Origin: a virus
Taxonomy: Duplodnaviria; Heunggongvirae; Uroviricota; Caudoviricetes
Direction: 5' to 3' (one strand)
Length of the DNA stretch: 5,868 bases
IMG/VR virus record: IMGVR_UViG_2734482780_000006
Shown here: piece by piece, positions 4,276 through 5,071 of the stretch
Layout of the letters: every line of letters starts with the position of its first letter
Position numbering within the stretch: position 1 is the first letter of the stretch
Program-made: the position numbers and the translations under genes
Notes under the pieces: model-generated
Databases searched by the model: none
What the model saw: only the letters and a program-made list of their open reading frames with translations
Told to the model about the DNA's origin: nothing

Positions 4276-4302
4276 GAAAAAACGTAGTACATCGTATTCA
4301 AG

Positions 4303-4496
4303 AGTATCTATGCTGGCATCGTAGCTGTTTTTAAACAGTAAGTAGCCGTTGAAGGTCACAGGGGAAAAATGCTCTTTGACTTGGCTTCCGGGGACGCACT
4401 ATTTATCTCTGAACCAGCCCATTAGCGGAAAATGTCACCTGGCTGATGCCTGAGGGGATTGTCGGTGTGGATGATGCGCTCTGGGAGAACGATTAA
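4303..4496 (+). pseudogene. tfa: Decayed remnant of a lambda-type tail fiber assembly gene (tfa), internal fragment with an in-frame stop and a frameshift
   Basis: Frame 1 gives [39 protein letters not shown] against lambda Tfa ...[44 protein letters not shown]... After a frame change, frame 3 gives [13 protein letters not shown] against lambda PLPENFTWLSPGG. There is no start codon, and stops fall at 4339-4341, 4423-4425 and 4494-4496. Confidence 0.65.
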
Positions 4497-5071
4497 GGAG
4501 TAGGAAAGTTAGCAATGTTCATTTCCAGAGATAAGGTTGAGCAGGTATTGCTGAATGTGAAGCTATCATATAGTTTCATTAGCAATAATATACTTTATAT
4601 TGTTATTATATTTCAGATAATTCTTTCTATGGGTATCATAGGGGATGATCAATGCCTTGTCGGATTTGTCTTTGTTACCAAACATTAACAATATAAGGTA
4701 CAACAGTTTTTATCGCTTTTATGAATGAGAAAATGTTCTTATGCATTGATGTATTAAAACTATATGAACAGTGAGCGAAATACCAATAATTGATTGATTA
4801 ATGTACTATAACAAGTTCTTCGAAATCCATATTGAAAAAATGCTTTGGATTTAATTAAATATCTCTGTCATTTTTATAATGTATTTATAATGGCCGCAAT
4901 GTTATGTATTTGTTATACCGCTTTTTTTGATAAGACTTATCTGAATATTCCATATAAGACAACGCTTGCGCTATTTTTATCAGATGAATAAAATCCTGCC
5001 GCTTATTTTTAAAGCGTCATTTAATTGATTTGAATCTTATCTTTTCAATCTATTTAACATACGTCATTTCT
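4497..5071. promoter_or_regulatory. Strongly AT-rich non-coding spacer upstream of the adhesin gene; probable promoter/regulatory region (H-NS-type silencing target is an inference)
   Basis: There is an abrupt drop in GC relative to the flanking phage genes, and no ORF of 60 codons or more. Several sigma70-like hexamers are present (e.g. TATAAT within tttttataatgtatttataatgg around 4871-4893, TTGATA around 4928-4933, TTGATT around 5024-5029), but none has a convincing -35/-10 pairing that I can verify by eye. Confidence 0.35.

Follow-up and report, generated by a model that had tools for sequence, protein, structure and literature searches.

The closest described relatives of the sequence analysed here are the tail fibre assembly gene of phage lambda (tfa) and its counterparts tfaQ and tfaR of E. 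coli K-12, whose products belong to family PF02413. Chaperones of this type consist of a variable N-terminal fibre-binding domain and a conserved C-terminal trimerization domain, according to the modular Tfa structure of North et al. 2019 as summarized in PMC9608196. DNA of the lambda tfa type was present in 5,232 of 5,426 complete E. coli genomes, at a total of 14,244 places, many of the matches being partial. The cryptic prophages of K-12 also carry pseudogene fragments of tfa, such as tfaD, tfaX and similar ones. Phage mosaicism has been known since the early 1990s, and mosaic exchange of tail fibre modules among P2, Mu, P1 and lambda was reportedly described by Haggard-Ljungquist and colleagues in 1992.

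Proteins with a DUF4376 domain (PF14301) are also found beside fibre genes. Experiments on Alteromonas phage V22 and on a Campylobacter CJIE1-like prophage have shown that fibre function requires the DUF4376 protein encoded just 3′ of the fibre gene (PMC7289586, PMC7882524), and in Alteromonas phages the proteins V22 gp27 and A5 gp9 carry the annotation of tail-fibre chaperones (PMC10579305).

We analysed a stretch of 5,868 nucleotides, hereafter the window, in which both kinds of sequence stand side by side. The DNA is that of E. coli and represents the right end of a lambdoid prophage that is defective. Among complete genomes, those of strains ZYB62, C41 and A2 come closest, at 99.4–99.9% identity, and in all three the equivalent DNA is adjoined by uspF, ompN and nifJ, a neighbourhood which we take to be the one where the Rac prophage ends on the K-12 map. 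At the left of the window the terminase gene gpA is recognized by its Pfam domains (GpA_ATPase, E 1.3e-50; GpA_nuclease, E 4.2e-51, cut at profile position 178 of 294), and the head and tail genes expected between it and the side tail fibre gene stf are deleted. In a blastn comparison with the stf of strain Ecol_244, homology sets in at 1518 of the window, opposite nt 422 of that gene; this 5′ truncation stems from the terminase–stf deletion. Because stf is truncated in this way nothing in the window is functional, and the locus as it stands there is a defective relic. The features of the window are listed below (coordinates, strand, identity).

34–1536, + strand: terminase large subunit gene gpA, 3′-truncated, 500 of about 641 aa left
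1518–3709, + strand: stf, lacking about 140 5′ codons (1712–3709 in the list of open reading frames)
1518–2511, + strand: conserved N-terminal and shaft part of stf
about 2512–3706, + strand: variable distal part (tip) of stf
3709–4275, + strand: DUF4376 gene, 188 aa, probable tail-fibre chaperone (PF14301, E 8.4e-17)
4276–4303, + strand: 3′ flank of the DUF4376 module, not tfa (homology to the STEC308 locus)
4299–4305, no strand: 5′ junction between the DUF4376 module and tfa codon ~49–50, from the ends of module and tfa homology
4306–4457, + strand: tfa pseudogene remnant, about Tfa residues 50–104, in frame 1 to 4416 and then in frame 3
within about 4334–4346, + strand: 12-nt (4-codon) gap relative to lambda-type alleles, adjoining the TAA
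4339–4341, + strand: in-frame TAA, common to the window type, ten related contigs and strain 1303
4417–4418, + strand: frameshift, one G missing from the GG doublet in CCAGGCCC, from alignments to strain 1303
4428–4442, + strand: conserved block GAAAATGTCACCTGG, the allele switch point in the 1303 version
4458–4510, + strand: zone of uncertain origin, where the downstream locus may already begin or tfa may continue in strongly diverged form (GC about 50%; stop codon at 4494–4496)
4511–5071, no strand: AT-rich region (23–32% GC in the GC profile) upstream of the adhesin gene
5072–5868, + strand: 5′ part of a YadA-like trimeric autotransporter adhesin gene, which runs off the window

Our reading, to which we give a probability of about 0.85, is that 4306–4457 is a non-functional internal remnant of a tfa gene of the lambda/TfaQ/TfaR type (codons ~50–104), bounded by two separate recombination junctions.

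A tfa remnant behind the DUF4376 gene

The initial annotation of this DNA had proposed that two reading frames downstream of the DUF4376 gene together reproduce an internal segment of lambda Tfa, and had named a TBLASTN search as the check. This search recovered a significant match at 4306–4457. With lambda Tfa (NC_001416) as the query and the whole window as the target, residues 50–103 matched 4306–4443 in frame 1 (29 of 54 identical, E 5e-10) and a second piece matched 4386–4457 in frame 3 (E 0.003). In the three-frame translation the peptide IYAGIVAVF lies at 4306–4332, and the further Tfa-like peptides that had been quoted lie at 4351–4410 and 4419–4457. In relatives without the frameshift, Tfa residues 50–104 match in a single frame with E 1e-15, and at the DNA level 4347–4442 is 82.5% identical to annotated phage tfa genes (blastn, E 1e-17); chance resemblance is excluded by these two values. 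Furthermore, PGAP describes the equivalent of 4348–4457 in strain C41, a genome with 100% identity to the window over 4276–4460, as ‘tail fiber assembly protein; frameshifted; missing N-terminus and C-terminus’, and NWU_3 likewise carries a tail fibre assembly pseudogene in its PGAP annotation. The two-frame reading is thus borne out, and the remnant, already labelled a pseudogene in the RefSeq annotation of near-identical genomes, is known both in kind and in annotation.

The remnant is about 150 bases long. Like the genes for lambda Tfa, TfaQ and TfaR, to whose residues 50–104 it is homologous, it lies downstream of stf on the same strand; unlike them, it is separated from stf by a complete DUF4376 gene and gives no Caudo_TAP score. 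Whereas an intact tfa is a frame of about 194 codons that opens with a start codon and encodes a conserved C-terminal domain, the remnant has no start codon (as had been noted at the outset), lacks the first 49 codons and those from about 105 on, and is without the conserved C-terminal domain, so that no more than roughly the first 30 positions of the Caudo_TAP domain (PF02413) are left in the window. Neither the 42-aa ORF of the non-frameshifted relatives (P0001) nor a repaired translation of 96 aa matched any Pfam family at E up to 1. We conclude that it is a pseudogene fragment and not a functional member of the family: with its start, its intact frame and all of the conserved C-terminal domain gone, it has no function as a gene. 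In being both truncated and disabled it resembles the many partial tfa copies of E. coli.

The two lesions that had been read from the letters are also real. The in-frame TAA placed at 4339 occupies 4339–4341, and together with the adjoining 4-codon gap it is present in all versions of the remnant. The frameshift placed near 4412–4420 is the loss of one G at 4417/4418; this G is kept in strain 1303 and in the ten related contigs, and its loss is restricted to the sub-lineage of the window. The list of differences, which compares the window with L003 and L009–L018, further shows a T at position 4305 of the window where the ten related contigs and strain 1303 have a G. These two, a G>T substitution at 4305 and the missing G, are the only changes accumulated within the sampled lineages.

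Two junctions of different origin

By blastn, the intact stf–tfa module of Ecol_244 (L008) matches the window only at 1518–2511 and 4347–4445. Compared with this classical module, 2512–4346 of the window has been replaced by a fibre tip and the DUF4376 gene. Similarity to Tfa had been thought to set in a few bases past the stop codon at 4275; it actually starts at about 4304–4306, some 30 nt past that stop codon. The interval 4276–4346 taken as a whole is similar to tfa (z 6.9), through the TGCTGGC...GCTGTTTT block, and its first part, 4276–4305, is not significantly so (z 0.11). In strain STEC308 (L006), whose DUF4376 locus has no tfa remnant, homology to the window passes the stop codon and ends at 4303, and 13 of the 15 bases at 4289–4303 match in a hand count from the alignment. 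We therefore rejected a tfa origin of 4276–4305, on the z of 0.11 and on the better match to the flank of this other DUF4376 locus. The left junction is uncertain by a few bases, its placement depending on a module that is only 78% identical. A physical breakpoint of the module, as had been suggested, is consequently located at about 4299–4305 by the alignments to Ecol_244 and STEC308. The join is probably illegitimate, and a short AGA microhomology may have been involved at this point.

L003, L005 and L007 have both the fibre tip and the DUF4376 gene. In AREA_497, STEC308 and MB06234 the tip/DUF4376 pairs showed no Tfa similarity at E ≤ 1e-3. The pair of AREA_497 occupies the ydfJ site, that of STEC308 adjoins pphA, and that of MB06234 lies among baseplate genes. 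The existence of such remnant-free pairs elsewhere indicates that tip and DUF4376 gene behave as one module, of which the tfa piece is not an obligatory part. Overall, lambdoid prophages carry the tip/DUF4376 block (from about 2335 or 2633 to 4220) at three sites, and it was also found in a prophage context with baseplate genes.

The other end of the remnant is of a different nature. Tfa similarity had been drawn as far as 4500, a span longer than can be sustained: similarity demonstrable at the protein level ends at 4457–4460. Matches obtained by exhaustive HMMER searching with the 42-aa ORF stop at its residue 30–31, that is, at window 4450–4453, and the tail of this ORF, IVGVDDALWEND, had no protein matches in the same search. 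The GC content stays at about 50% until about 4510 and then drops to 23–32%, and 4480–4506 has a weak colinear DNA match to tfa nt 338–365 (z 3.25; 10–11 of 1,000 shuffles reach the score). Since the protein match ends at about 4457 but GC content and weak colinear match persist beyond it, the right junction is placed somewhere from 4457 to about 4510, and its position within this interval is ambiguous. It is a second junction, independent of the cassette exchange, and it leads into the adhesin locus. As a consequence, the proposal that the interval marks the edge of the incoming cassette holds for its left end and not for its 3′ end.

The region 4445–5100 was found in 13 of the 5,426 complete E. 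coli genomes, attached each time to the remnant. The downstream adhesin locus had no match in the phage collection and no context free of the remnant in the 5,426 genomes. Its gene is annotated by PGAP as ‘YadA-like family protein’, has the Pfam domains YadA_head, YadA_stalk and YadA_anchor on the full L001 protein, and is cargo at the prophage end. A 57-aa ORF lying upstream of it at 4515–4688 had no family match.

Origin and movement of the remnant

We compared the core of the remnant with the tfa of Ecol_244 over 33 aligned codons and obtained a pS of 0.47 and a pN of 0.12, that is, a pN/pS of 0.26. The differences being mostly silent, the remnant is better described as a divergent allele with few disabling lesions than as a decayed lambda copy, which is how it had first been characterized. 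On these codon counts, the pattern is the one that two alleles diverged under purifying selection would leave. Over the same stretch the remnant is only 75–82% identical to any intact E. coli tfa: among the 5,426 complete E. coli genomes, blastn found no intact tfa more than about 82% identical to 4276–4460, and the sequences closer than this were only 15 copies of the remnant itself. A word-indexed protein search for an intact parent returned the two remnant ORFs only, and exhaustive HMMER searching with the 42-aa ORF returned only lambda-type Tfa proteins (at most 80% identity, covering residues 2–31) and no parent. As the parental allele was not found intact, the original extent of the remnant and the roles of donor and recipient are conjectural, and the remnant could have travelled in with the module instead of being an overwritten resident gene.

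The junction itself is not particular to the window. An identical passage from DUF4376 gene to tfa is found in strains 1303 and ARS-C101 and in a second copy in strain A17, and in these three the remnant extends to the natural tfa stop. The prophage of 1303 is located near prfC and osmY. The same junction thus occurs at two chromosomal prophage sites, both of them in A17, and in many assemblies, with contigs from 170 collection blocks. This distribution over two sites and many assemblies implies an old event that has been inherited or moved, and was not made in the prophage of the window.

The version in strain 1303 gives further insight into how it may have moved. When identity to the Ecol_244 tfa is followed along the 1303 remnant in a sliding window, it rises from 0.70–0.87 to 0.97–1.00 at the equivalent of 4428–4443, and the window and 1303 differ from 4443 onward. 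Immediately after GAAAATGTCACCTGG the window reads CTG ATG CCT GAG GGG where 1303 reads TTG TCG CCG GAA GGG, which in the codons for L-M/S-P-E-G amounts to three synonymous differences and one replacement. We read the window as still carrying the divergent allele up to and including codon 104. The 1303 type, in turn, does not appear from these sequences to be the ancestor of the window and looks like a recombinant with a lambda-type tfa; its longer remnant (P0002) matches Caudo_TAP with E 4.1e-42, the product being read from an internal start. The window and 1303 are about 98.5% identical over ~2335–4442, and the stf shaft to the left of this block is 88.6% identical. Such a shared block would be consistent with homologous recombination having carried the cassette from one prophage to another, the remnant serving as its right-hand arm. 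In a broader form we put this forward tentatively, with rather less confidence than an even chance would give: the remnant core (~4347–4442) and the conserved N-terminal region of stf might act as homology arms by which the cassette hops between co-resident lambdoid prophages and displaces a non-homologous chaperone of the Tfa type, 1303 being an example caught in this state.

The sequence of events that would best account for these observations is as follows. In an ancestral lambdoid phage, a fibre tip with its own DUF4376 gene (~2512–4303) would have taken the place of the distal stf portion and of some 49 codons at the start of tfa, the left join being probably an illegitimate one. The rest of tfa would have been lost where the AT-rich YadA-like adhesin locus now starts. 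The source allele would have diverged from the lambda-type alleles while still functional, and the remnant would later have gained the TAA, possibly a 4-codon deletion and, in the sub-lineage of the window only, the 1-bp deletion. We infer that the replacement took this direction, and that the remnant offered a patch of homology on the right as the module passed from one prophage to another.

The strongest competing account, originally proposed for this DNA, places the replacement in the prophage of the window itself, where an incoming cassette would have overwritten the 5′ part of a resident lambda-type tfa and the rest would have decayed neutrally in place. Part of it agrees with our results, given that the tip and DUF4376 gene do replace the stf–tfa segment up to codon ~50, that the position and orientation of the remnant fit, and that disabling lesions are present. 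The ‘resident’ part does not agree, as the identical junction recurs at two sites, both in A17, and in contigs from 170 collection blocks. Neither does decay in place: divergence is mainly synonymous (pN/pS 0.26, pS 0.47), the identity of the 1303 version jumps sharply to 97–100% instead of declining evenly, and the sampled lineages have accumulated the two changes at 4305 and 4417/4418 only. We consequently regard this account as unlikely. To call the fragment a scar left by the replacement of a tip and chaperone module is still fair, but it is an inherited piece of a divergent tfa allele that has been truncated twice.

Far less probable still is an active fragment, in which P0001 would be a small Tfa N-domain peptide of 42 aa, or the DNA would act as a regulatory or spacer sequence for the adhesin gene. 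The intact ORF does occur in other assemblies (contigs from 170 collection blocks), but it is frameshifted in 13 of 13 complete genomes of the window type, in which the locus persists, and it had no protein family match and no homologue covering its C-terminal tail. The constant linkage of the remnant to the adhesin locus, which could speak for a role in cis, is explained by shared descent, and scans of the region for promoters and terminators, Rfam families, tRNAs and repeats found no promoter, terminator, RNA or other signal above chance. Finally, we attach next to no likelihood either to chance resemblance, in view of the E values of 1e-17 for DNA and 1e-15 for protein, or to a silent alternative copy in an invertible tail-fibre segment of the Gin/Cin/Pin type, which we rejected: invertible fibre segments containing alternative copies of tfa do occur in some Rac/e14-type prophages, but here the remnant and stf share one strand, and the neighbourhood has neither flanking inverted repeats nor an invertase gene.

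The DUF4376 gene as a candidate fibre chaperone

In the recombined arrangement that we favour, the position of tfa behind stf is taken by the DUF4376 gene. Its ATG overlaps the TGA of stf by one base (TGATG at 3707–3711), and the PF14301 domain covers residues 72–176 of its product, labelled by PGAP ‘DUF4376 domain-containing protein’. We found 1,791 homologues of this protein, many of them in E. coli. A confident AF2 model (pLDDT 85) predicts a beta-rich N-terminal part followed by a long C-terminal helix. In BFVD its structural matches are phage DUF4376 proteins (32 at E ≤ 0.001), and in the PDB there was neither a sequence match for the protein nor a significant fold match for the model. 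Homology to lambda-type Tfa was not detectable (hhalign probability 2.8%, with shallow profiles), and the idea of a distant Tfa homologue, with this same value from shallow profiles, is unsupported.

The protein resembles V22 gp27, A5 gp9 and the product of the gene 3′ of the CJIE1 H-fibre gene in having PF14301 in its C-terminal half, a length of about 190 aa and a gene directly 3′ of a fibre gene. The similarity is at the level of the family only, and the partner fibre in the window is truncated. That the E. coli DUF4376 protein acts as the chaperone of its fibre tip would be a reasonable inference at the family level. Because stf lacks its 5′ part in the window, this role would apply only to relatives with intact tails. 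In two of the related contigs (L009 and L010), gpJ is followed by a 765-aa stf, the DUF4376 gene and the remnant; there, the DUF4376 protein is the sole chaperone candidate adjoining the fibre.

As in mosaic fibre exchange in general, the tip and its putative cognate chaperone move together and the boundaries lie in conserved stf and tfa sequence. Unlike the usual exchange, the incoming candidate chaperone comes from another family (DUF4376) and the old chaperone gene has been cut instead of being recombined in frame. A truncated tfa at the end of a prophage fibre module is a routine product of phage mosaicism, the general picture of which is unchanged by our results. Modestly new are the map of the exchange at base level and the finding that a lambdoid side fibre can be accompanied by a DUF4376 gene where tfa would otherwise stand. 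The exchange has its left edge in the stf shaft at ~2335–2512 and its right edge at tfa codon ~50, and a sister lineage appears to have undergone a secondary homologous crossover at tfa codon ~98. These results should be useful for annotating host-range modules of prophages and for fibre engineering in which the matching chaperone is supplied along with the fibre.

Our search of representative proteins also returned several chimeric ORFs in which a 5′-truncated Tfa is fused to unrelated sequence.

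Breakpoints in tfa and exchange of the fibre tip

An exhaustive HMMER protein search with the 42-aa ORF of tfa remnants that lack the frameshift recovered database ORFs (P0125, P0135 and P0144, as well as P0123, P0124, P0126 and P0143) in which an unrelated N-terminal sequence is fused to a 5′-truncated lambda-type Tfa. In these ORFs, residue D44/I45 of Tfa is the common join point for three different fusion partners, and it lies close to the junction of the window's own tfa remnant, at codon 49-50. Its nearness to the window's junction may indicate a recurrent breakpoint in tfa.

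Upstream of the remnant, the stop codon of stf and the start codon of the DUF4376 gene overlap by one base (ATGTGATG, window 3704-3711), as is typical where a fibre gene and its chaperone gene are translationally coupled. The block formed by the fibre tip and DUF4376 (window 2633-4220) was also found, with 88% identity, in E. coli MB06234 (positions 2578-4685 of the related locus L007), where the surrounding prophage carries baseplate genes as well as a tail-collar fibre. It follows that the module crosses phage tail types. The PGAP name for the MB06234 fibre tip, a 'shikimate transporter' pseudogene, looks like a mis-annotation.

The terminase-stf deletion and the stf shaft

1500-1720, deletion junction from the terminase large subunit gene to stf
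1594-2985, repetitive stf shaft, rich in Ala, Ser and Thr

At the deletion junction the terminase large subunit gene ends at residue ~497-500 and stf resumes at nt ~422, with no in-frame fusion of the two reading frames; all head and tail morphogenesis genes between them are deleted. Among 5426 complete genomes, this junction is common to strain ZYB62 only.

Approximately 290 nt of the shaft (2043-2335) are missing from strains 1303 and AREA_497, and this absence suggests repeat-length variation. The repetitive shaft also yields spurious long ORFs outside the stf frame, including some on the minus strand, such as one of 463 aa (1594-2985, minus strand).

The AT-rich region and the adhesin gene

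4515-4688, 57-aa ORF in an AT-rich region, with a gene call in every related contig
5072-5868, YadA-like trimeric autotransporter adhesin gene with head, stalk and anchor domains (9473-10681 and 7180-8544 in the related loci L001 and L002)

The 57-aa ORF had no match in a Pfam search and is probably spurious. Directly 5′ of the adhesin gene lie ~560 nt of DNA with 23-32% GC. The adhesin gene is cargo at the prophage end; its locus had no match in the phage collection searched and was found in just 13 of the 5426 complete E. coli genomes. A 78-nt head repeat (~5756-5868) differs in copy number among variants, which therefore encode adhesins of 402, 428 and 454 aa.
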